Shown piece after piece: positions 17,696 through 28,455 of a DNA stretch of 64,000 nucleotides; position 1 is the first letter of the stretch, and each line of letters opens with the position of its first letter. Where the stretch lies: positions 4,736,001 to 4,800,000 of the forward strand of contig OY762007.1 of NCBI GenBank assembly GCA_963665115.1, given 5' to 3'. Both the position numbers and the translations under genes were made by a program. The DNA is from an uncultured Rivularia sp. (GTDB taxonomy: Bacteria; Cyanobacteriota; Cyanobacteriia; Cyanobacteriales; Nostocaceae). A model generated the notes under the pieces. The model had not been told where the DNA came from. It ran no database searches and saw only the letters and a program-made list of their open reading frames with translations.

Positions 17696-18985
17696 ATGTC
17701 CTCAACTCTGCTAGAATTTCCTCGTCTAAATGCGCCGAAGCTACGACAATTACCCAATGGGTTGACGATAGTTGTAGAGCAAATGCCAGTAGAAGCTGTT
17801 AACCTAAATTTATGGATTGACGTGGGTTCAACAGCCGAAAGTGATGCTATTAACGGGATGGCTCACTTTTTGGAACATATGATTTTCAAAGGAACCAAGC
17901 GACTGGCAAGCGGAGAGTTTGAACGTAGAATTGAAGAACGTGGTGCGGTGACGAATGCCGCGACTAGCCAAGACTATACTCATTATTACGTAACTGCGGC
18001 TCCCAAGGATTTTGCAAAACTTGCACCATTACAAATCGATATAGTAATGAATGCTGGTATTCCCGATGATGCTTTTGAACGGGAACGTATGGTGGTGCTT
18101 GAAGAAATTAGACGCAGCGATGATAACCCCCAACGCCGTACTTTTGCCAGTGCAATGGAAACTGCTTTTGAAAAATTACCATATCGCCGTCCGGTATTAG
18201 GGCCAGAAGCCGTAATTTCTCAACTTCAAGTAGAGCAAATGCGCTCTTTTCATGCTCAAAATTACCAACCAAAGTCTGTTACTGCGGTTGCTGTTGGTAA
18301 TTTACCTGAAGAAGAGTTGATTGAAATTATTGCAGAGGGGTTTGCTAATGTTGAAACGCGAAACTTAGGCAAAGTAGAAACCCAAGATATAAATTCTCTA
18401 CAATTAGAACCACCTTTCACAGAAATTGTTCGTAAAGAATCTGTTGACGAAAGCCTTCAGCAAGCAAGATTAATTATGCTGTGGCGAGTGCCTGGTTTGA
18501 TGCAGCTAAATCAAACTTATGCGCTGGACGTACTTTCAGCCATTTTAGGGCACGGGCGTACTTCTAGATTGTGGCGGGATTTAAGGGAAGAACGCGAACT
18601 GGTTAACTATATCTCTGTAAGCAATATGACCAATCAGCTACAGGGCACTTTTTTGATTGCTGCTCATTGTGAAGTAGAAAAATTAGCTGCTGTAGAACAA
18701 GCAATAGTTGAACACATACGTAAAGTTCAAACAGAAATAGAAGAATCAGAAATTACCCGAATTCGCAAACGTGTAGCCAATAGGTTTATTTTTGCCAACG
18801 AAAGACCTAGCGATCGCGCTAATTTATACGGCTACTATCAAACTTTAATCGGCGACTTAGAACCAGCCTTTGATTTCCCCCATCATATTCAGAGTCAGGA
18901 TAGAGATACTTTGATTGAAGCTGCTAGAACATATCTTTCCCCAGATGCTTATGGGGTAGTGGTGATGAAACCGAAAGAAAATTAG
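17696..18985 (+). CDS. M16-family (pitrilysin-like) zinc peptidase
   Basis: GMAHFLEHMIFKGT (HxxEH), NAATSQDYT, ERERMVVLEE. Confidence 0.92.
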   Translation: MSSTLLEFPRLNAPKLRQLPNGLTIVVEQMPVEAVNLNLWIDVGSTAESDAINGMAHFLEHMIFKGTKRLASGEFERRIEERGAVTNAATSQDYTHYYVTAAPKDFAKLAPLQIDIVMNAGIPDDAFERERMVVLEEIRRSDDNPQRRTFASAMETAFEKLPYRRPVLGPEAVISQLQVEQMRSFHAQNYQPKSVTAVAVGNLPEEELIEIIAEGFANVETRNLGKVETQDINSLQLEPPFTEIVRKESVDESLQQARLIMLWRVPGLMQLNQTYALDVLSAILGHGRTSRLWRDLREERELVNYISVSNMTNQLQGTFLIAAHCEVEKLAAVEQAIVEHIRKVQTEIEESEITRIRKRVANRFIFANERPSDRANLYGYYQTLIGDLEPAFDFPHHIQSQDRDTLIEAARTYLSPDAYGVVVMKPKEN

Positions 18986-19187
18986 GAGTTAGGAATTAGG
19001 AGTTACAAGTTATTCCTAATTTCTGATATTAATTTAGTAAAATTGGACGTGCCTTGATGTCCGTATCACAACACTTTTGATGAAATGTTGTGTTTAATTT
19101 GGTTGTAAAATACTTTAAATTCTCAACTTCTAATTACTAACTTTCAACTCATAACTCATAACTCCTAACTCTTAACTCTTTCTAAAA

Positions 19188-20057
19188 ATGTGGACTGAAA
19201 TTGATGCTCAAATTAGCCAAGCTACTGGGGAAAAATTCAAAACCCAGCAGCGGCGAAGTGTTTCTGGTGGGTGTATTAATCAAGGTTATTGTTTAAATGA
19301 TGGTGCGCGGACTTATTTTATGAAGTTAAATCAAGCTTCCCAAGTGGCGATGTTTGAAGCGGAAGCTTTGGGTTTAACACATATGTGCTATACAGATACC
19401 ATCCGCGTACCGGAACCTATTTGTTATGGTGTTGCGGGAAATTCCTGCTATATCGTTTTGGAATGGTTGGATATGGATAGGGGTGACAGTAAAGCTTACC
19501 AGGAGATGGGTAGGAAGTTAGGTCAAATGCATAAAGCATCTCTGAGCGAAACATTTGGCTGGAATATGAACAATACCATCGGTTCGACTCCACAAATTAA
19601 TACTCGCACTGATGATTGGGTAGAGTTTTGGACTAAACATCGTTTGGGATATCAGTTTGAATTAGCAAAGCGTCGTGGTGGTAGTTTTCCTCAAGCTGAT
19701 GATTTACTAAATGCCATTCCCGAGTTATTAGCAGGGCATGAAGTGCAGTCATCTTTGGTACATGGCGATCTATGGGGAGGGAATGCTGGATTTACTCACG
19801 AAGGGGAGCCAATAATTTTCGATCCGGCAACTTATTTCGGCGATAGGGAAGTTGATATTGCGATGACAGAAGTTTTTGGTGGTTTTCCGGCTGCTTTTTA
19901 TCAAGGTTATAACGAAGCGTTTCCGCTGGATGATGGGTATGAACGGCGGAAGACTTTGTATAATCTGTATCATATTTTGAATCATTTTAATTTGTTTGGT
20001 GGTGGGTATGGTTCTCAAGCGAATGGGATGATTGGGAGGATTTTGAGCAATAAATAA
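19188..20057 (+). CDS. Fructosamine kinase family protein
   Basis: GGCIN, MFEAEALGL, NTIGSTPQ, LVHGDLWGGN, FDPATYFGDREVD. Confidence 0.92.
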   Translation: MWTEIDAQISQATGEKFKTQQRRSVSGGCINQGYCLNDGARTYFMKLNQASQVAMFEAEALGLTHMCYTDTIRVPEPICYGVAGNSCYIVLEWLDMDRGDSKAYQEMGRKLGQMHKASLSETFGWNMNNTIGSTPQINTRTDDWVEFWTKHRLGYQFELAKRRGGSFPQADDLLNAIPELLAGHEVQSSLVHGDLWGGNAGFTHEGEPIIFDPATYFGDREVDIAMTEVFGGFPAAFYQGYNEAFPLDDGYERRKTLYNLYHILNHFNLFGGGYGSQANGMIGRILSNK

Positions 20058-20127
20058 TCCTCACCCTCCAAGGGTGGGGCTACAGGAGCGAAGCCCACCT
20101 GCGTGGGCTAAATTGTAATAAGAAGAT

Positions 20128-21447
20128 TTAGTCTTTAATTTCTAAATCGTAGGCTTGGCAGAGGGATTTTAGGTTTTCTCGGAAGCGCGATCGCACTTCT
20201 GGGGGGGAGATGATTTCGCAGTCTTTGCCGTAGCGGAAGACTTCTCGGATTAGCCAGAAGGGATTTGCTACTTTTCGCACTACTTCGCGTATATCTCCAA
20301 CTTTTTCGTTGCTGATATCTTTATTAACGGAAGATGCTTTAGGTTTATATGCTTTTACCATTCCTTTGCAAAAGTGTAAGTGTACTTCCAAATAATCTAG
20401 ACCTTCGTCTCGCCATTGTCCTTTGACAGGTAAAATTGTTTTCACTCGATCAAAACGTAAACACCTATTATGTATGAGTTCTGGGTATTCAGGATTTTTT
20501 ATATCTTCAGTTTCATCGCACCAGATATTTAGGTAAAATCCCTTCTCCTCTTCAAAAGAAGTTTCTGCATAACGAACTGTAAATGCAATATACTCTTGTT
20601 GAGAATTTTTATAAAACAATCTGAAAGGTTCTTTTTTTTGACAAGATTGTTCGACTACTATACGCCATGATTGGTCTGGATGAATTAGTTGATTCATCAC
20701 TGATTGGCGTATTGCTGAATCCAAATTCCCTTGTTCTAACAACAAATTACCGAGGATTTGAGCTTTACTTACATCACCAGAATTTTTGAAAAGCGAAATA
20801 GCTTCATAAATTACTTCAATACGTGGATCTGAGCAAATATCGTTTATTATACCGTCAGTATTACTCCCTTCCCGCTCTAAGATTACCGATATAGTTTCTT
20901 CTCTCCCTGCCACCTGCCCACTGCTCCCTGCCTTAGATTTTAGATAATTTTCCGGCGGAATAGGAGTAACATTACTTTGAGATATACTTGTAATCTCAGA
21001 TGTATTTTTAAATTCTAATTGTTGGTTTAATTTTTTAGAGTGTTTTTCATTCCACTTATCCGCCCACTTCTGAGAAAATTTTTCTAAAATAATTGTTTTA
21101 TTCCTTGACCAAAGGCTCAAAGTAAAATGTAATTCTTTTCTACCTTGTTTTGGTGGCACCCGATGGTCGTCCAAAATTCCTAGAAAATCTTTCATAAGAT
21201 GAACTGCTTCCCTAACTCTTGTAGAAGTAAACTTTTCTTGAGTTTGGTATTGGGAAGTAAGTTTGACCAAATCTTTACAAGTCGTTTTCACTAAAAGCTT
21301 GTGATTTTTATTCTCTTCTTCTTTCCACTCACAAACTAATTCCAAATTCTCATACATAGTTAAGCCATTTTCCTTGAAGTCCAAAATTGCTTCAAGCAGA
21401 TATCTTGTTCTTTTCTCAGGTACTGGACCGTGGCTAATATTTGGCAT
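20128..21447 (-). CDS. CRISPR-associated WYL-domain transcriptional regulator with atypical N-terminal domain
   Basis: C-terminal half matches cyanobacterial type I-D WYL regulators (PFRLFY, FTVRYA, YLNIWCDETED, HNRCLRFDRV, FWLIREVFRYG, IISPPEVR). ATG 21447 preferred over 21510 because 21473-21501 is a DNA repeat. Confidence 0.85.
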   Translation of the reverse strand: MPNISHGPVPEKRTRYLLEAILDFKENGLTMYENLELVCEWKEEENKNHKLLVKTTCKDLVKLTSQYQTQEKFTSTRVREAVHLMKDFLGILDDHRVPPKQGRKELHFTLSLWSRNKTIILEKFSQKWADKWNEKHSKKLNQQLEFKNTSEITSISQSNVTPIPPENYLKSKAGSSGQVAGREETISVILEREGSNTDGIINDICSDPRIEVIYEAISLFKNSGDVSKAQILGNLLLEQGNLDSAIRQSVMNQLIHPDQSWRIVVEQSCQKKEPFRLFYKNSQQEYIAFTVRYAETSFEEEKGFYLNIWCDETEDIKNPEYPELIHNRCLRFDRVKTILPVKGQWRDEGLDYLEVHLHFCKGMVKAYKPKASSVNKDISNEKVGDIREVVRKVANPFWLIREVFRYGKDCEIISPPEVRSRFRENLKSLCQAYDLEIKD

Positions 21448-21472
21448 CAGTGAAACGAACAGCTTTTCAATT

Positions 21473-21594
21473 AGTTTAGGGTAATAAAAAAGTTTAGGGT
21501 ACCGATACATAAAATACCTACCCTAAACTAAATTTACCTTGCTATTGAGCAAGTTTTAGAAATTTTATGGTAACTATTGCATTAGGGTATACCC
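21473..21594. promoter_or_regulatory. Putative operator boxes in the divergent WYL/cassette promoter
   Basis: AGTTTAGGGTA at 21473-21483 and 21491-21501; inverted TACCCTAAACT at 21519-21529; TTAGGGTATACCC at 21582-21594. Confidence 0.6.
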
Positions 21595-21664
21595 CCAAAG
21601 CGACAGTGTTTACACAAGCAGCAATAGCTTCTGAAACAACTTAGTCATTTAAGGGAGTTAAAAT

Positions 21665-22081
21665 ATGATAATTCGTCAAACATTAATTGACGAGCTTGAT
21701 AGCTTATTAGAAACTCAACGTAGCAAGGGTTATAAAACTGCTTGGGTATGGTATGAAATCAAAAGCCAATCAGCCCCATTCTCGGAAGCGGAATTATACT
21801 ATATTGCGAACTTGCTAGGTTATAAGCCTGGATGGGCTAAATATAAAATCGAAGAGCAACAGGCAAACCAACTATTATATCAACCACTTACTCCACTGCA
21901 AAAGAGTTTGAATTTATTGGAGTTAGACGTTCCTTTTTATTCACAGGATTTGAAGCGTTCGTATAAGAGTAAAGCATTGAAGTTACATCCAGATAAAGGA
22001 GGTAGGCATGAAGATTTTATAGCCTTAAATAAGGCTTATCAGTATTTAAAAAATTATTTACGCGCAGAAGGTGTAATATAA
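21665..22081 (+). CDS. Small J-domain (DnaJ-like) protein with two N-terminal GYKxxW repeats
   Basis: LKRSYKSKALKLHPDKGG...FIALNKAYQYL (HPD motif); KGYKTAWVWY and LGYKPGWAKY; SD-like AGGGAG upstream. Confidence 0.8.
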   Translation: MIIRQTLIDELDSLLETQRSKGYKTAWVWYEIKSQSAPFSEAELYYIANLLGYKPGWAKYKIEEQQANQLLYQPLTPLQKSLNLLELDVPFYSQDLKRSYKSKALKLHPDKGGRHEDFIALNKAYQYLKNYLRAEGVI

Positions 22082-22122
22082 CCAAACAGAAGTTAAATAA
22101 GACATAATAGTTGGTATAAAAA

Positions 22123-22896
22123 ATGCATATACTTTTAGAAGAAATTATCGATATATATCAGGAAAAGGCACGTAAAGCTTTATCCAAAGATTTACAAATA
22201 TCTCTTAGTGAAAATATCCAAGTCAATTTTAATCAATTAATAAAGGATGATGAAGAATTATCTAATATAATTAATAATCTTAGCAATAATCTTGTCAAAG
22301 CAGTTATATTTGGTGGATGGGTTAGAGACTATACTTGTAACTATTTACAACAGCAAAATTATAAGCCTCGTGACATTGATATAGTTGTAAATGGCTTAAA
22401 TTTTAATCAACTTCAGAAATTTCTACCATCAAACACGAAAATCAATATCTTTGGTGGTTTTTTAATTGAAACTTCAAAAATTAAAATAGATATTTGGTTA
22501 TTAAAAGATACGTACTTGATTAAACGTTTGAATTTAGATGTAAAGTTTAATCAGCTACCAGAAACAACCGTTTTTCGTATCAATTCTATAATATTTAAGC
22601 CTCAACAATTTTGGTCAAAACCTGACATCTTTGATTTAGGTTGTGTTGATGCTTTAGTAAATAAAGTTATAGATTTTCAGTCTACTTATATTCCACTTCC
22701 AGAAATTCAAGTTGCACGCGCTCTTATATATTCAGCAAAATTTAAATTCTCCTTAAAATTAGAGGTTCATAATTTTATTAGAATGATATGTAATAGTGAT
22801 GTGGAAATTACTAATCAAAAAAACAATCTACTGTTGTACTGTCCTCAGCATCTACGTCAAAATTGTATAACTATGCTTAAAGATATAACTGATTGA
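22123..22896 (+). CDS. Divergent nucleotidyltransferase (CCA/poly(A)-polymerase head-like, Pol-beta superfamily)
   Basis: IFGGWVRD...PRDIDIVV (GGxVRD + DxD); third acidic residue in KIDIW. Confidence 0.75.
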   Translation: MHILLEEIIDIYQEKARKALSKDLQISLSENIQVNFNQLIKDDEELSNIINNLSNNLVKAVIFGGWVRDYTCNYLQQQNYKPRDIDIVVNGLNFNQLQKFLPSNTKINIFGGFLIETSKIKIDIWLLKDTYLIKRLNLDVKFNQLPETTVFRINSIIFKPQQFWSKPDIFDLGCVDALVNKVIDFQSTYIPLPEIQVARALIYSAKFKFSLKLEVHNFIRMICNSDVEITNQKNNLLLYCPQHLRQNCITMLKDITD

Positions 22897-22929
22897 GAAA
22901 AATATTTTATATTAAACAGGTTATTCAAA

Positions 22930-23925
22930 GTGTTTCGGAAAATATATAAAGGCTTTGATCAAAAACTTTTATTACTAGTACAATTGATTTCGGAATGTAA
23001 TAATTATATATGGATATGTGACCGAAATACATATTGGTTATATTATATATTTCCTAGTATTTGGACTGCGGCGATTCGAGGAGTAAAAATTTGTCTACTC
23101 ACAAATCCTTGTGCGGACAACAAGGAAAACTATAGACGATGGCTTCTCAAACAGATTGGTTGCCATGTATACACTATAGATTCTCTGCCTTTTTATGGTT
23201 TTTTATTTGAACAATATGGGAATACAAAGTTAGCGTTAATAGATGATAATATAAAATTTGATAACAATAGTGTAGAATATACTGAGCGAAAAGTAAGATT
23301 ATATACAGAAAAATTAGATTATTCAGCTATATGTAATTTTTGGAATTTATTAAACTTTTGGCAAATTAAACTTTCTAGTATGCAACGAAAAGAGTTTCTC
23401 TTTGAAACTTGCTCTCAAAAAAAACTTTTTGATAAATTACGTAATGTAGAACAATATCGAAATGCACAATTTTCTATAGAAACGATTGATGTTAGAAATG
23501 TAATGCTTTTACAACATTATATTAAAGAATATAAATTTATTCAAATCAGCCAACTAGTTAATGATTTATATAATGATAATAACTTTGAACTATTTCAACC
23601 TTTGAAACTGACTTTTGAAGACAGTACATATTCAATTATTACGCCACCAATAGTAGAAATAAATTCAAAAAAACTTGTAGTAATTGAAGGAAACACCAGA
23701 TTTTTTTACTGTTTGCAGAAAGAATTATATAAAATTAAAGTTGTAATAGTAAATAATGTTACCGAGCCACTACCCGGTGAAGCATTTTCAATAAGTGATG
23801 TCAATCTTACTTCTCTCACATTACCTTTAGATGTTTTAATTAGTAAATTAAGCCGGAAAAGCTTCCGAAAGATAGAGGAAAAAATTCATATACAAATGTT
23901 ACCTTCAAATTTGATAACTGAGTAA
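22930..23925 (+). CDS. Hypothetical two-domain protein: PLD-fold-like N-terminus and ParB/sulfiredoxin-like C-terminus
   Basis: ISECNNYIWI...AAIRGVKICLLT (PLD-like, no HKD); ITPPIVE...LVVIEGNTRFF...IKVVIV (ParB/Srx-like); GTG start. Confidence 0.6.
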   Translation: MFRKIYKGFDQKLLLLVQLISECNNYIWICDRNTYWLYYIFPSIWTAAIRGVKICLLTNPCADNKENYRRWLLKQIGCHVYTIDSLPFYGFLFEQYGNTKLALIDDNIKFDNNSVEYTERKVRLYTEKLDYSAICNFWNLLNFWQIKLSSMQRKEFLFETCSQKKLFDKLRNVEQYRNAQFSIETIDVRNVMLLQHYIKEYKFIQISQLVNDLYNDNNFELFQPLKLTFEDSTYSIITPPIVEINSKKLVVIEGNTRFFYCLQKELYKIKVVIVNNVTEPLPGEAFSISDVNLTSLTLPLDVLISKLSRKSFRKIEEKIHIQMLPSNLITE

Positions 23926-24033
23926 GTAGAGATACGATGGGTGTATGGCACAAATAAATATTGCAACTACTAAAAATAAATTAGATTTGATGGCTTACTT
24001 TATAACTGTTCACTGATAACTGTTAACTGTAAA

Positions 24034-24864
24034 ATGCCTCACAGTCTAATCCTCAACCTCACCCCAAAATCCCCCATCTACCCCCAATACCTCACCGGAA
24101 GACACTTACACGCTTTATTCCTCACCCTTGTAAGTTCCGTTGACAAAGAATTAGGAGCCTATTTACACGACTCTCAAGCCGATAAAGCTTTTACGCTTTC
24201 CCCTTTGCAAATAATCAAAAATTCTCCTATTCATAAAGGATATAAATTAAAATCCCAACATCAAGAAATGATTCCGACGGGTACGCCTTGTTGGTGGAGA
24301 ATTTCTTTACTCGATGATGCACTATTTGGCAAGCTAACTCAACTTTGGCTAAACCTTAATCCACAACAGCCTTGGCATTTAGGCTCTGCCGACTTGTATA
24401 TTACCAGCATTCAAGGTACTCCCCAATCTACGCAACCTTGGGCTAATGCTTGCACCTATACACAACTTTACGAACAAGCCAGCGATTCGGAGCGGATTAT
24501 TTCACTTAATTTCGCAACTCCCACGGCTTGGAGACAGGGGAAATACGATAGTACGTTACCGACAAGGGAATCTGTGTTTAAATCTTTGCTTTCTCGGTGG
24601 AATAAATATAGCGGTATTGAGCTTGAAGGAATAAATTTTGATGCAATTTTTCCCAGCTTTATCAACATCCATACCGAAATAGTTCCCGATTCTCGTAGTA
24701 AATTCATCGGTGTTGTTGGTGAAGTTAGCTATCGAATCATGGGTGATGTTGAAGCAGTTCAAATAAAGCAAATTAACGCTTTAGCTGACTTTGCTTTATA
24801 TGCCGGAATTGGTAGAAAAACCACGATGGGAATGGGAATGGGGAGAAGAGTTAGGAGTTTGTAG
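24034..24864 (+). CDS. cas6: CRISPR RNA endoribonuclease Cas6
   Basis: MPHSLILNL, GRHLHALFL, FATPTAWRQG, Gly-rich loop YAGIGRKTTMGMG. Confidence 0.95.
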   Translation: MPHSLILNLTPKSPIYPQYLTGRHLHALFLTLVSSVDKELGAYLHDSQADKAFTLSPLQIIKNSPIHKGYKLKSQHQEMIPTGTPCWWRISLLDDALFGKLTQLWLNLNPQQPWHLGSADLYITSIQGTPQSTQPWANACTYTQLYEQASDSERIISLNFATPTAWRQGKYDSTLPTRESVFKSLLSRWNKYSGIELEGINFDAIFPSFINIHTEIVPDSRSKFIGVVGEVSYRIMGDVEAVQIKQINALADFALYAGIGRKTTMGMGMGRRVRSL

Positions 24865-24918
24865 TAAGGGCTTTAGCCCTGTCTTTAAAGAATTGAAGGC
24901 TGAAGCCCTTACTACGAA
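24861..24918. repeat. GTAG-type REP doublet between cas6 and cas4
   Basis: gtagtaagggctttagcc ... ggctgaagcccttactac. Confidence 0.7.
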
Positions 24919-24950
24919 CTTTGAATTTTAATCAACATTTAATCAAAAAT

Positions 24951-25541
24951 ATGAACAACACAGATTACATAACTATCGCTTCTTTAAATCAATATTCCTA
25001 TTGTCACCATCGTTGCTGGAGGATGTTTTGTTTGTGTGAGTTTACTGATAATCAATACACTATTGAAGGAACAAGTTTACACGAACGAGTTCACACTGTT
25101 GGTGATGTAAATAAAGAAGATATTTGGCAAGTTCGCGCTATTTGGTTGAAGTCGGAGAAATATAAGTTAATCGGAAAATCAGATTTGATTGAGTTAGAAA
25201 ATGGTGAATGGTATCCGGTGGAATATAAACGAGGAAAAAAAGGTGAATGGGATAATGATGAATTACAAGTTTGCGCTCAAGCTTTGTGTTTGGAGGAAAT
25301 GACGGGAAAAAATATTACTACTGGCTATGTTTATTATGCTCAAACTAATAAACGTCAATTGATAGAAATTAATGATGATTTGAGAAATGAAACTATTGCC
25401 ACGATTGCTGAGGTTACGAAGTTGTTAGAAACCGGAAAAATGCCACCAGCAGTTTATAGCAAACGCTGTAAAGGATGCAGTCTTTATTCACAATGTTTAC
25501 CAATGGCTGTTGATAAAGTGAAACGCTATCAAGAAATTTAA
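24951..25541 (+). CDS. cas4: CRISPR-associated exonuclease Cas4
   Basis: YSYCHHR, GKSDLIE, PVEYKRG, QVCAQALCLEEM, CKGCSLYSQC Fe-S cysteines; ATG at 24951. Confidence 0.95.
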   Translation: MNNTDYITIASLNQYSYCHHRCWRMFCLCEFTDNQYTIEGTSLHERVHTVGDVNKEDIWQVRAIWLKSEKYKLIGKSDLIELENGEWYPVEYKRGKKGEWDNDELQVCAQALCLEEMTGKNITTGYVYYAQTNKRQLIEINDDLRNETIATIAEVTKLLETGKMPPAVYSKRCKGCSLYSQCLPMAVDKVKRYQEI

Positions 25542-25589
25542 TATTTTTTCATTGTTCATTGTTCATTGTTCATTGATAACTGATTAATC

Positions 25590-26594
25590 ATGGGTACAGT
25601 TTACGTTACACAAATGGATTCTTTTGTGGGAAAAGTTGACGAGCGTCTTACCGTTAAATTTGAAAAAAAGAATATTTTAGATGTTCCTTTACTCAAAGTT
25701 GATGGCATCGTTGTTTTAGGACGAGCAACTATATCGCCTGCGGTCGTTTACGAACTATTAGAACGCCATATTCCTCTCACCTTTCTTACAGAAACTGGTC
25801 GTTATTTAGGCAGATTAGAACCAGAAGTTAGTAAAAATCTTTTTCTCCGCAAAGCTCAATGGCAAGCTTCCGATAATTCTCAGTTAGCTGTTGGTGCGGT
25901 ACAAAGTTTTGTCAGAGGTAAACTCAAGAATTACCGCAATATTATGGTTCGTCGTCAAAGGGAATCTGCCGAACTCGATTTATCTAAAAATATTACCCGT
26001 TTAGAAAATGCCATTACACCCATCGATATCACTCAAAATATTGATTCTTTGCGAGGTTTAGAAGGTGCGGGTAGTGCTGCTTACTTCGGTGGTTTTGACC
26101 AAATGATTCGCGCTACAGAGTTTAAATTTACTCGTCGAGTTCGTCGTCCGCCAACAGATCCCGTAAATTCTTTACTTAGTTTTGGCTATTCGCTGCTACG
26201 TCACGATGTCCAAGGTGCAGTAAATATTGTCGGATTCGATCCATATCTAGGATATCTACATTGCGATCGCTATGGAAGACCTTCTTTAGCATTGGATTTG
26301 ATGGAGGAATTTCGCCCTTTGGTTGTGGATGCGATGGTGTTATCTACTTTGAATAAGGAATTGTTGAAACCCGAAGATTTTCAAAGCGAACCCGTAAGCA
26401 ATGCTGTTTCTCTGACTAAAGAAGGACGAAAAACATTTCTCAAACTGTATACCCAGAAGAAACAAACTCGATTTACCCATCCAGTAATGAAACGCAAATG
26501 CAGTTACCAAGAGGCTTTTGAAATTCAAGCCAGATTATTAGGAAAATATCTGATGGGTGAAACCGATAAATATCCACCATTGGTACGTTGGTAA
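25590..26594 (+). CDS. cas1: Type I-D Cas1
   Basis: LRGLEGAGSAAYF, RRPPTDPVNSLLSFGY, GYLH, SLALDLMEEFRP. Confidence 0.97.
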   Translation: MGTVYVTQMDSFVGKVDERLTVKFEKKNILDVPLLKVDGIVVLGRATISPAVVYELLERHIPLTFLTETGRYLGRLEPEVSKNLFLRKAQWQASDNSQLAVGAVQSFVRGKLKNYRNIMVRRQRESAELDLSKNITRLENAITPIDITQNIDSLRGLEGAGSAAYFGGFDQMIRATEFKFTRRVRRPPTDPVNSLLSFGYSLLRHDVQGAVNIVGFDPYLGYLHCDRYGRPSLALDLMEEFRPLVVDAMVLSTLNKELLKPEDFQSEPVSNAVSLTKEGRKTFLKLYTQKKQTRFTHPVMKRKCSYQEAFEIQARLLGKYLMGETDKYPPLVRW

Positions 26595-26623
26595 TCAAGT
26601 AAAAAAATCATCTCTAACAATCA

Positions 26624-26911
26624 ATGAACGTTGTTGTCAGTTACGATATTTCCGAAGATAAACGCCGCACAAAAATCCATAAGATCCTTAAATCTTACGG
26701 ACAATGGGTACAGTACAGTATTTTTGAATGTCAACTCACCGATACTCAATATGCCAAATTGAGAAGTCGTTTGAATAAGTTAATTAAATCCGACACCGAT
26801 AGCATCCGCTTTTATTTTTTATGTGCCTGCTGTTTTGGTAAAGTGGAACGTATCGGTGGAGAAAAGCCTCGCGATGACAGCATTTTCTTTGCTGAATTCA
26901 CGGATGGGTAG
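26624..26911 (+). CDS. cas2: Cas2
   Basis: VVSYDISEDKRRTKIHKILKSYGQWVQYSIFEC, DSIRFY. Confidence 0.97.
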   Translation: MNVVVSYDISEDKRRTKIHKILKSYGQWVQYSIFECQLTDTQYAKLRSRLNKLIKSDTDSIRFYFLCACCFGKVERIGGEKPRDDSIFFAEFTDG

Positions 26912-27123
26912 GTGTTGAAAAACAAGACTTAAAAAAAATGGCTGAATCCCAGAGTTGATAAGCCTTTGAGGCTAAAAACATTCCCAACCCATCCGCGATG
27001 CTTACCCACAAAGGATTTCAGCCATTTATTCCCTTCTCATTTTCATTCTCACGTGTTATCATTAATTCATCCGTGAATCCGAACCTTGAAAACCTTATAT
27101 TTAAAGGCTTCCAGATGCCCGCA
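26896..27123 (+). promoter_or_regulatory. Type I-D CRISPR leader
   Basis: Between cas2 and the first repeat. attcacggatg (26896-26906) is inverted at 27068-27078; cggatgggt is inverted at 26987-26995; aaccttgaaaac motif about 40 nt before repeat 1. Confidence 0.8.
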
Positions 27124-28455
27124 GTTGAAATTCACATTAATCCCTATCAGGGATTGAAACACCAAAAACTTCGGCTTCGGCTAGTATCGTTGCAGTTGAA
27201 ATTCACATTAATCCCTATCAGGGATTGAAACGCAATAGAAGACTTATCCAATTATAAAGCTATAATGTTGAAATTCACATTAATCCCTATCAGGGATTGA
27301 AACGCTTGCAATTGGCTGTGTAGACTGACCGGAAACAAGTTGAAATTCACATTAATCCCTATCAGGGATTGAAACCTGTAGTTGGTCGGTATTGCGCTGG
27401 TTCATGGCATTGTTGAAATTCACATTAATCCCTATCAGGGATTGAAACGTATTCTGGGACATCTCCGGGTTTAACTGGGTCATAGTTGAAATTCACATTA
27501 ATCCCTATCAGGGATTGAAACCCATATTTTATTCCCCGGTTGATAAAGCCAAGCTTGTTGAAATTCACATTAATCCCTATCAGGGATTGAAACACAAAGA
27601 TATCAAATCGTTAATGCGCTATATCGAAGTTGAAATTCACATTAATCCCTATCAGGGATTGAAACTGACTAACAATTTATGGACTTTACAAGAAATACTT
27701 GTTGAAATTCACATTAATCCCTATCAGGGATTGAAACTTTTCATTAATTGATTGTGGTGCAAAATGCAATGAGTTGAAATTCACATTAATCCCTATCAGG
27801 GATTGAAACGAGGAAGATTTGGTGGAAGTTGAGCGGTTGTTTGGTTGAAATTCACATTAATCCCTATCAGGGATTGAAACAGAATCTCCTCCCCAGGAGT
27901 AAAAGTTAAAGGTAGTTGAAATTCACATTAATCCCTATCAGGGATTGAAACAGTATAGTCAAGCTGGGTTAAATGAAATTGAAGCAGAGTTGAAATTCAC
28001 ATTAATCCCTATCAGGGATTGAAACTTAAGCGAAGACGCAAGGGTCAATACCAACAGCAAGTTGAAATTCACATTAATCCCTATCAGGGATTGAAACTTA
28101 AATTATAGGTAGGTATTACAGCTACCTATAATTTGAAAATCACATTAATCCCTATTAGGGATTGAAACTTACAAATGTAAGATGCAGAGGGAAACTTGAA
28201 AGGTTGAAATTCACATTAATCCCTATTAGGGATTGAAACTCAGACATTGCTGAATCAATATTAGAACATCCAGAGTTGAAATTCACATTAATCCCTATTA
28301 GGGATTGAAACTCCTTCTAAAACATCATTTCCTTCTCCTCCTTCTTGTTGAAATTCACATTAATCCCTATCAGGGATTGAAACCAATCATTGATGGAGTG
28401 GCTTTTTGCTAGCTTGTTGTTGAAAATCACAGTAATCCCTATCAGGGATTAAAAC
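27124..28455 (+). CRISPR. CRISPR array: 19 repeats of 37 bp, 18 spacers of 34-37 bp
   Basis: Consensus GTTGAAATTCACATTAATCCCTATCAGGGATTGAAAC counted directly. Repeats 15-17 carry CTATT; repeat 15 also starts TTTGAAAAT; terminal repeat 28419-28455 is degenerate. Confidence 0.98.

Follow-up and report, generated by a model that had tools for sequence, protein, structure and literature searches.

A predicted nucleotide-signalling cassette in the Cascade slot of a type I-D CRISPR locus from an uncultured Rivularia sp.

Clover pairs a dGTPase, CloA, with a nucleotidyltransferase (NTase), CloB, which makes p3diT; this product keeps CloA in check, and loss of CloB activity is toxic (Yamaguchi et al., PMC12265719). 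The labels of Extended Data Fig. 1a in the same paper name a dGTPase, a patatin, a single NTase and a ParB-like/HNH protein as CloB partners. A template-free NTase product also restrains its partner in Hailong (HalB; PMC13434031), which is the logic we propose here for a three-gene cassette, although Hailong has a membrane channel and the cassette has none. The cassette encodes a J-domain protein, an NTase and an iHKD-ParB protein and lies within 64,000 nucleotides of DNA from an uncultured Rivularia sp. (the window; contig OY762007.1, positions 4,736,001 to 4,800,000), where it takes the place of the Cascade genes in a type I-D CRISPR locus. With moderate confidence, we read it as a mobile, CRISPR-independent nucleotide-signalling defence cassette in a WYL-headed exchange slot, where it replaced the I-D Cascade genes. 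It has the acidic triad DxD..D and the two-gene layout of enzyme and partner in common with Clover, and its NTase is homologous to those NTases of dGTPase-NTase operons with which it was compared. Unlike in Clover, no HD-family dGTPase is adjacent, the neighbours being the J-domain and iHKD-ParB genes; the iHKD-ParB partner carries no patatin, J-domain and EAD4-WYL genes are added, and the site is a CRISPR locus.

The iHKD-ParB module is itself known from the patatin/TIR-iHKD-ParB-CE systems (PF24402, PF24392, PF24387), with whose fused forms the protein described here shares 31-42% identity and whose upstream NTase recurs in proteobacteria and Kovacikia. It differs from them in having no effector domain, and in cyanobacteria a WYL gene stands at the head of the module, whereas the non-cyanobacterial loci tested have none. 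Class II CCA-adding enzymes and poly(A) polymerases (4wby, 3h37, 1miv) have the head and neck fold, GGxVRD and DxD..D in common with the NTase, which lacks their body and tail and has RRD and EDxxR replaced. Cyanobacterial type I-D loci (headed by Sll7009 in Synechocystis; PMC10212523) have in common with ours cas6d, cas4, cas1d, cas2, a 212-bp leader, the I-D repeat and a divergent WYL gene, but our locus is without cas3', cas10d, csc2 and csc1, and the N-terminus of its regulator is swapped for EAD4. WYL regulators head many defence systems (PMC9122601), and CapW senses single-stranded DNA (PMC11662680). The same WYL-WCX type of gene as in BrxR and CapW (PMC9122601; PMC11662680), which head varied defence systems, stands here beside a candidate inverted-repeat operator; in contrast to their proven N-terminal winged helix-turn-helix, EAD4 (PF19959) occupies that place, and the WYL gene is also an apparent recombination anchor.

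Replacement of the Cascade genes

The locus starts with a WYL gene on the minus strand, followed on the plus strand by the J-domain, NTase, iHKD-ParB, cas6, cas4, cas1 and cas2 genes, the leader and the array. The open reading frames (ORFs), their strands and the gaps of 41, 33 and 108 bp proved, in an ORF check, to be exactly as described in a first-pass annotation of the sequence. The features are as follows.

19188..20057, plus strand: fructosamine-kinase-family gene (fruK), the conserved left flank; Pfam PF03881; 98% identical in G726, the closest relative
20128..21510, minus strand: chimeric EAD4-WYL-WCX regulator gene; likely start Met22 (21447)
20128-20783, minus strand: WYL core of the regulator, from the resident I-D regulator lineage
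20600..20800, no strand: left junction zone, within the WYL gene; the 3' end of the gene is 100% identical to G726, and only background similarity is left beyond ~20783
~21061-21429, minus strand: EAD4 part of the regulator, cassette-derived; residues 28-150; PF19959 6e-30
21491-21501 / 21519-21529, no strand: perfect 11-bp inverted repeat in the divergent promoter, candidate operator
21665..22081, plus strand: small J-domain protein, 138 amino acids (aa), HPD intact; PF00226 6e-8; 60% identical in L013/L014
22123..22896, plus strand: CloB-like class II pol-beta NTase, 257 aa; CCA-enzyme head and neck fold
22930..23925, plus strand: iHKD + ParB-CE-like protein, 331 aa; iHKD residues 36-142, ParB-CE-like residues 171-288
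23999..24033, no strand: right junction, sharp; G726 homology is back at ~24002, within a short repeat of heptamer type immediately before cas6
24034..26911, plus strand: cas6d, cas4d, cas1d and cas2d, intact and vertically inherited; Pfam, NCBIfam, PADLOC
26912..28455, plus strand: 212-bp leader and type I-D array; array 27124-28455, 19 repeats of 37 nt, 18 spacers of 34-37 nt

The same chromosomal site can be followed through the genus by its left-flank fruK gene, which is present in 24 of the 26 other genomes; we read 21 of these 24 loci, omitting three on short or partial contigs. A WYL gene with Cascade genes is held by 13, three have the J gene only, two are empty and three have other neighbours, and the cassette is absent from all 21. 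This distribution supports a replacement of the Cascade genes by acquired DNA. The window genome nests among the Cascade-bearing strains as sister to G726 (support 100/99), and 3,218 bp of the window (20784-24001) stand where G726 has 9,715 bp, comprising the 5' end of its regulator, an MNT-HEPN-like pair, cas3, cas10d, csc2 and csc1. DNA homology between the two spans 18067-20783 and restarts at 24002, where a 20-mer begins that occurs five times in the genome. The site comparison and the junctions thus agree with the proposal of the first-pass annotation that acquired DNA took the Cascade slot, and the position of the junctions suggests that replacement likely went through recombination within WYL gene homology. 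Within the genus the content of the slot changes readily: the Cascade genes of G725 follow a different order, two WYL clades alternate, and MNT-HEPN-like and DUF433-type pairs fill it in relatives. Effector genes are reported to shuffle while adaptation genes stay put (PMC10212523).

A misassembled junction, named earlier as a possible source of error, was rejected as unlikely, as contigs from two read runs match the layout base for base. In two of the four runs compared, a 7,715-nt contig spans 19500-25200 with no differences, and a third covers this interval in three overlapping pieces, again without differences; the three runs come from a single study and may themselves represent the DNA behind the assembly. 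The fourth run, a biofilm metagenome from another study, holds cassette pieces 93-97% identical to those of the window, with no contig of this run (X4) joining cassette to cas6 among the matches listed.

The low GC content found earlier in spot counts within the NTase and ParB genes is confirmed for both, at 27.3% in the NTase and 27.8% in the iHKD-ParB gene, values that place them among the lowest 0.3% of 4,308 long ORFs. It does not extend to the J gene (35.3%), which like the WYL gene (36.2%) is ordinary for a genome of 37.9%; cas1 has 39.6% rather than the earlier estimate of about 45%. The lack of HIP1 sites, offered as evidence of foreignness, is uninformative and was rejected as a sign of transfer, with 0 sites found against 0.68 expected (P(0)=0.51, i.e., chance) and none in cas6, cas4 or cas2 either. 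A sequence scan for promoter-like sites (23 vs 27.3 in shuffles) and terminator-like sites (5 vs 4.4) was equally uninformative. Between fruK and the 3' end of the WYL gene lies a ~55-bp repeat (window 20059-20114) with dozens of genomic copies.

The cassette had been expected to share WYL control with the crRNA-processing and adaptation genes. That it simply does so finds no support: judged by a tree and by DNA matches to G726 and to other cassette loci, the WYL gene is not an intact CRISPR regulator but a chimera of a cassette-borne EAD4 N-terminus and a resident WYL core. Its product carries WYL and WCX domains (PF25583 above cut-off; PADLOC WYL 5e-9; Pfam WYL itself unmatched), and in a quick tree the WYL core clusters with the G726 and G725 regulators, apart from the cassette EAD4-WYL proteins (SH-aLRT 99). 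Three cassette loci elsewhere (L013, L014, L063) align, at ~66-70% DNA identity, with the EAD4 part, with the promoter and with all three genes. Since the promoter resembles those loci (alignment score 125-157) and not the G726 promoter (20), promoter and control elements came with the cassette, as did the N-terminal half of the regulator. The inverted repeat was reached in 1 of 500 shuffles; it extends to 13 bp with a compensatory change in L063 and is imperfect in L013 and L014.

Cassette proteins and their relatives

The NTase was modelled with a mean predicted local distance difference test score (pLDDT) of 92.7, and the model matches class II CCA-adding enzymes with Z scores of 12-16 (best Z 15.9, root mean square deviation 3.5, 204 residues), whereas the CD-NTases CdnE and CdnG reach only 4.4-4.7. 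No PADLOC family matched at E <= 0.1, and on these two results membership of CBASS was rejected. Residues G64, G65, R68, D84, D86 and D123 are invariant in 20 NTase sequences. In CCA enzymes, selection of ribose and templating of C/A depend on the RRD and EDxxR motifs; in an alignment to 4wby and 1vfg, RRD is replaced by TTV and EDxxR by PEIQV, and because both are lost a template-free, possibly deoxy product is plausible. Sequence searches of the PDB gave 0 and 1 weak matches with narrow alignments and, with wider ones, only matches at E 0.03-0.1, to CCA enzymes and polyphosphate kinase PLD domains.

Kinship with the NTases of dGTPase operons was seen independently in a plasmid search with the single protein, which found seven records, namely Kovacikia and six Bacillus plasmids (Bacillus E 1e-8 to 4e-8); in both of the two Bacillus regions opened, the NTase gene directly follows a dGTPase gene. 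An hhalign comparison with the dGTPase-linked group gave 98.2% (E 3e-14), but the alignment used (A5) includes one dGTPase-linked member, and the plasmid search is therefore the independent test. A distant member of the phylum (G239) also has an NTase homologue adjoining a dNTPase (L057:9287-11540), a Clover-type dGTPase + NTase pair; the best PDB matches of this dNTPase are 9p8s-9p8v (8-chain, 473-aa enzymes; E ~1e-75), taken to be octameric CloA. The cassette is less unfamiliar than the first-pass annotation implied, with parts that map to Pfam iHKD and ParB-CE and to Clover CloB-like NTases.

The partner begins at its iHKD module, 33 bp past the NTase stop, without an N-terminal patatin or TIR. 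The PLD-like domain noted earlier belongs, by profile, to the catalytically dead iHKD family (PF24402; 4e-26, 91.8 bits vs a cut-off of 27) and has no HKD motif at the position where polyphosphate kinase has one. The second domain is a borderline match to ParB-CE (PF24392; 9e-5, 22.9 bits vs a cut-off of 23; Atlas 0.93 to the ParB-CE cluster) and keeps SIITPP..E..GxxR, in which SIITPP, E243, G254 and R257 are invariant (22 sequences for G254/R257), together with a C-terminal RxIE. The module, which may serve as sensor, effector or eraser, was found in 518 representative proteins. Among the 149 analysed for domain architecture, 84 have a long N-terminal extension with GxSxG (patatin-type), 18 another long and 17 a medium one, 19 have fewer than 40 residues, many of them probably cut, and 11 are fragments; TIR and other N-terminal fusions occur among the homologues. 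In a quick tree, the Nostocales proteins without patatin group as a single clade (99) that lies among patatin fusions linked to the NTase, and Limnoraphis also has a patatin-less NTase + iHKD-ParB pair (adjacent locus tags). Across genera, the ratio of nonsynonymous to synonymous substitution rates (dN/dS) is 0.24-0.39 for the NTase and iHKD-ParB genes, with dS up to ~1, and 0.14-0.44 for the J gene; by this measure the cassette genes are under purifying selection.

The J gene is accessory and separable, because it is missing from Kovacikia and from the non-cyanobacterial loci and stands alone at the same site in three relatives (G706, G713, G721; 76% DNA identity), where it may be a remnant or an independent arrival. 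These lone copies lie between fruK and a response regulator (L075:1746-2144, L076:1411-1824, L085:1664-2077). Elsewhere, a mobile-looking region encodes a 271-aa J-domain protein (L087:7410-8225) with a GYKxGW-type N-terminal segment like that of the cassette J protein (28%).

As the first-pass annotation had left to be checked, the three genes do recur together. The block of EAD4-WYL, J, NTase and iHKD-ParB genes is found in Calothrix PCC 7103 (L013), Scytonema NUACC26 (L014) and L063, in each case without cas genes and followed by a second WYL gene with an MBL and E2-ThiF-JAB operon; the three probably go back to one ancestral event. This second WYL-headed operon (MBL-like + E2-ThiF-JAB, with or without a membrane gene) lies back to back with the cassette (L013:11011-16143, L014:11011-16154, L063:11785-16286) and is probably another defence system. 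With cas genes, the module recurs on a plasmid of the distant cyanobacterium Kovacikia minuta (NZ_CP083583), its sole plasmid match: a 5'-damaged WYL gene, the NTase (45%), a patatin-iHKD-ParB protein (42%), MNT, HEPN, cas6d, cas4, cas1, cas2 and a 16-repeat array, in the same WYL-cas6 slot but without J. By its arrangement, this appears to be a second, independent occupation of the slot. Among the 30 other loci tested, many of them short metagenome contigs, a WYL gene is nearby in five and cas6 or cas1 in one. Non-cyanobacterial loci carry the module as a patatin or TIR fusion, and its partner is the same NTase in nine loci (L015-L017, L019, L039-L043) or, alternatively, an AEP-like gene, recognized by Pfam in L018 (PF24387) and by BLAST in L044, L052 and L053, with L020-L022 set aside.

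The iHKD-ParB profile is found in 4 of 389 genomes of the family, the window's included, and in none of the 26 other genus members; two of the three other family matches appear to repeat known loci, so that three distinct loci were counted. Wider searches of 401 genomes each, which are samples and not proof of absence, found the window's own genome only at the order level, this and one distant 451-aa protein without WYL at the class level, and two genomes at the phylum level. The 38 pattern matches in viral contigs included no NTase relatives. In one metagenomic relative (L038:481-1825; 81% DNA identity), a deletion with a 13-bp overlap joins the 3' part of WYL to iHKD-ParB, and no cas6 follows.

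Our literature searches returned no paper that describes the version without patatin or its occurrence within I-D loci. The fused system may be covered by Nicastro et al. 2023 (doi 10.1093/nar/gkad879), probably the source of PF24402, PF24392 and PF24387. The cassette is not described in the available portions of PMC12839542, PMC10853773 and bioRxiv 10.64898/2026.10.19.760177.

Remaining CRISPR genes and the second I-D locus

The proteins from cas6d to cas2d are 93-96% identical to those of G726, with dN/dS of 0.04-0.16, and the leader falls within the 202-220 bp given for cyanobacterial I-D leaders (PMC10212523). The spacers have no full-length match elsewhere in their own genome or in the fetched loci. 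As noted earlier, interference genes are missing from the locus: tblastn with the genome's own copies of cas3, cas10d (C-terminal part), csc2 and csc1 matched a second I-D locus only. This locus, found in the genome-wide search that the first-pass annotation had called for, spans contig ends (L011:12427-15924, L012:1-9400) and has all four genes and three arrays of another repeat, which shares the position of its hairpin and its 8-nt 3' end with the window repeat. The retained adaptation genes may serve this second Cascade in trans. Elsewhere, the Kovacikia plasmid likewise shows a match to cas10d.

Other observations concern the cas genes at large. At the locus, cas1 exists in two alleles in the genus, with 62-66% (L032, L074, L080, L081, L084) versus 91-95% (L065, L067-L072) identity to the window gene, while cas6 and cas4 range over 80-96%; in G708, cas1 is broken up by two opposite-strand ORFs. 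Besides cas6, a WYL gene and further neighbours at the second I-D locus seem to be split. The window's repeat type also makes up a small array of ~6 repeats at 2.19 Mb (G000:C1:2191810-2192200, L088), with no cas gene recognized in 20 kb. Two further loci were labelled by eye. The one at ~1.70 Mb (L086:1400-13600) has a 90-repeat array, cas2, cas1 and two ORFs, of which one is reverse-transcriptase-like and the other, of 509 aa, regulator-like; the one at ~1.45 Mb (L089:7257-19109) is a type III-like cas cluster that includes cas6 and a pair of small arrays.

Proposed function and competing explanations

As initially supposed, a nucleotide-signalling defence module is the most likely interpretation of the cassette. 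A role in defence is very probable, and we are similarly confident that the cassette works independently of CRISPR. By analogy, it is best read as CloB-type signalling, but not as Clover (no dGTPase), CBASS or a complete I-D system. The NTase would work without a template and couple two (deoxy)nucleotides, giving a short linear signal similar to the p3diT of Clover, to be bound by the dead HKD domain and/or the ParB pocket. Phage infection would shift nucleotide pools or destroy the signal and so release the partner, whose ParB-CE domain would deplete nucleotides or nick DNA and halt the infected cell. Through the inverted repeat, the EAD4-WYL protein would hold the operon repressed until DNA damage was sensed, while cas6, cas4, cas1, cas2 and the array would stay useful, as the second I-D Cascade could load their CRISPR RNAs (crRNAs). 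Within this scheme, we think a soluble dinucleotide-type product probable and lean to the same degree towards a signal that restrains rather than activates. The ParB-CE domain stands an even chance of being the effector; we prefer it since no other candidate for catalysis remains in a version that selection has maintained without patatin. That the whole chemical chain holds is possible but doubtful.

Several points weigh against this reading. Two of the six cyanobacterial-type loci that adjoin WYL genes (window and Kovacikia) precede cas6, which is above chance for a rare cassette. The NTase is only 27-29% identical to dGTPase-linked NTases over 147-166 residues, and the product and sign of its signal may differ from those of Clover. 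The ParB-CE assignment is borderline, made by profiles with a score just under the Pfam cut-off, and a constant iHKD-ParB module beneath variable effectors fits a sensor as much as an effector. EADs have been described as interaction adaptors (PMC7159879), and DNA binding by EAD4 is a guess. As for service by the second Cascade, the body of its repeat differs from the window repeat, its cas6 appears split, and its cas3 has a one-base frameshift in the assembly and in one of three runs, the other two being without the extra base.

A toxin-antitoxin pair is an unlikely alternative, in which a harmful NTase would drain deoxynucleoside triphosphates, make a toxic nucleotide or tail tRNA or protein, and iHKD-ParB would neutralize it by hydrolysing the product, with patatin and TIR as optional additions. 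The NTase fold does derive from tRNA-tailing enzymes, patatin-less two-gene forms are kept under selection in Nostocales and occur in Limnoraphis, and MNT-HEPN-like and DUF433-type pairs use the slot in relatives. However, the homologous NTase of Clover is protective and its mutation toxic (PMC12265719), the NTase at 257 aa has no CCA body or tail, and the partner enzyme elsewhere has an AEP-like polymerase fold (L018, PF24387), which fits signal synthesis.

CBASS-like activation seems to us distinctly unlikely. Infection would turn the NTase on, and its product would bind iHKD-ParB as a sensor that fires an effector, in trans for the patatin-less form and possibly via EAD4 or the J-domain. 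No effector is encoded in cis, the characterized relative inhibits, and the NTase resembles CD-NTases too little (Z 4.4-4.7, no PADLOC match), even though activating-messenger systems are likewise built from a constant module with changing effectors (here patatin, TIR, others) and the genome encodes a second EAD4-like protein at 905 kb (E 2e-8).

The first-pass annotation had also considered coupling to crRNA or adaptation, with crRNA cut by Cas6 or Cas1-Cas2-Cas4 intermediates acting as primer, ligand or trigger in a Cascade-free CRISPR-linked system. We regard this as very unlikely: 29 of the 30 other loci have no cas6 or cas1 in the available DNA (many being short contigs), the window and Kovacikia genomes both have cas10d elsewhere, in the former as part of the second I-D Cascade, and the slot is a known swap point, with Cascade order and WYL clade varying between close relatives and effector genes reported to shuffle while adaptation genes stay put (PMC10212523). 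In its favour, Kovacikia independently fills the WYL-cas6 slot with cas6d, cas4, cas1, cas2 and the 16-repeat array intact, the plus strand has no terminator-like site from cassette to cas6, and the cas genes are under strong selection. We give equally little credence to the idea that the WYL-to-cas6 interval is a regulated plug-in slot, into which the cassette was plugged twice because it works with the remaining crRNA and adaptation machinery, whose processed crRNA or intermediates would feed an effector of nucleotide signalling. A disarmed, non-functional passenger left by patatin loss is highly improbable, for although most relatives carry an effector domain, the related L038 copy is broken by deletion and J alone survives in three relatives, here all catalytic motifs are kept, the frames are open, dN/dS is 0.24-0.39 and a 93-97% identical copy exists in the biofilm metagenome of another study.

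On our preferred reading of a CRISPR-independent signalling cassette, the locus offers a minimal, testable member of CloB-like signalling, whose partner has no known effector domain. It could reveal p3diT or a new signal, and the role of an iHKD-ParB module common to the 518 representatives. With a close relative as reference, the locus records how an immune system was overwritten by another, probable one by way of a WYL regulator gene common to both, with the chimera left behind. The second, independent case on the Kovacikia plasmid suggests that WYL-to-cas6 intervals of cyanobacterial I-D loci may be mined for new defence genes.

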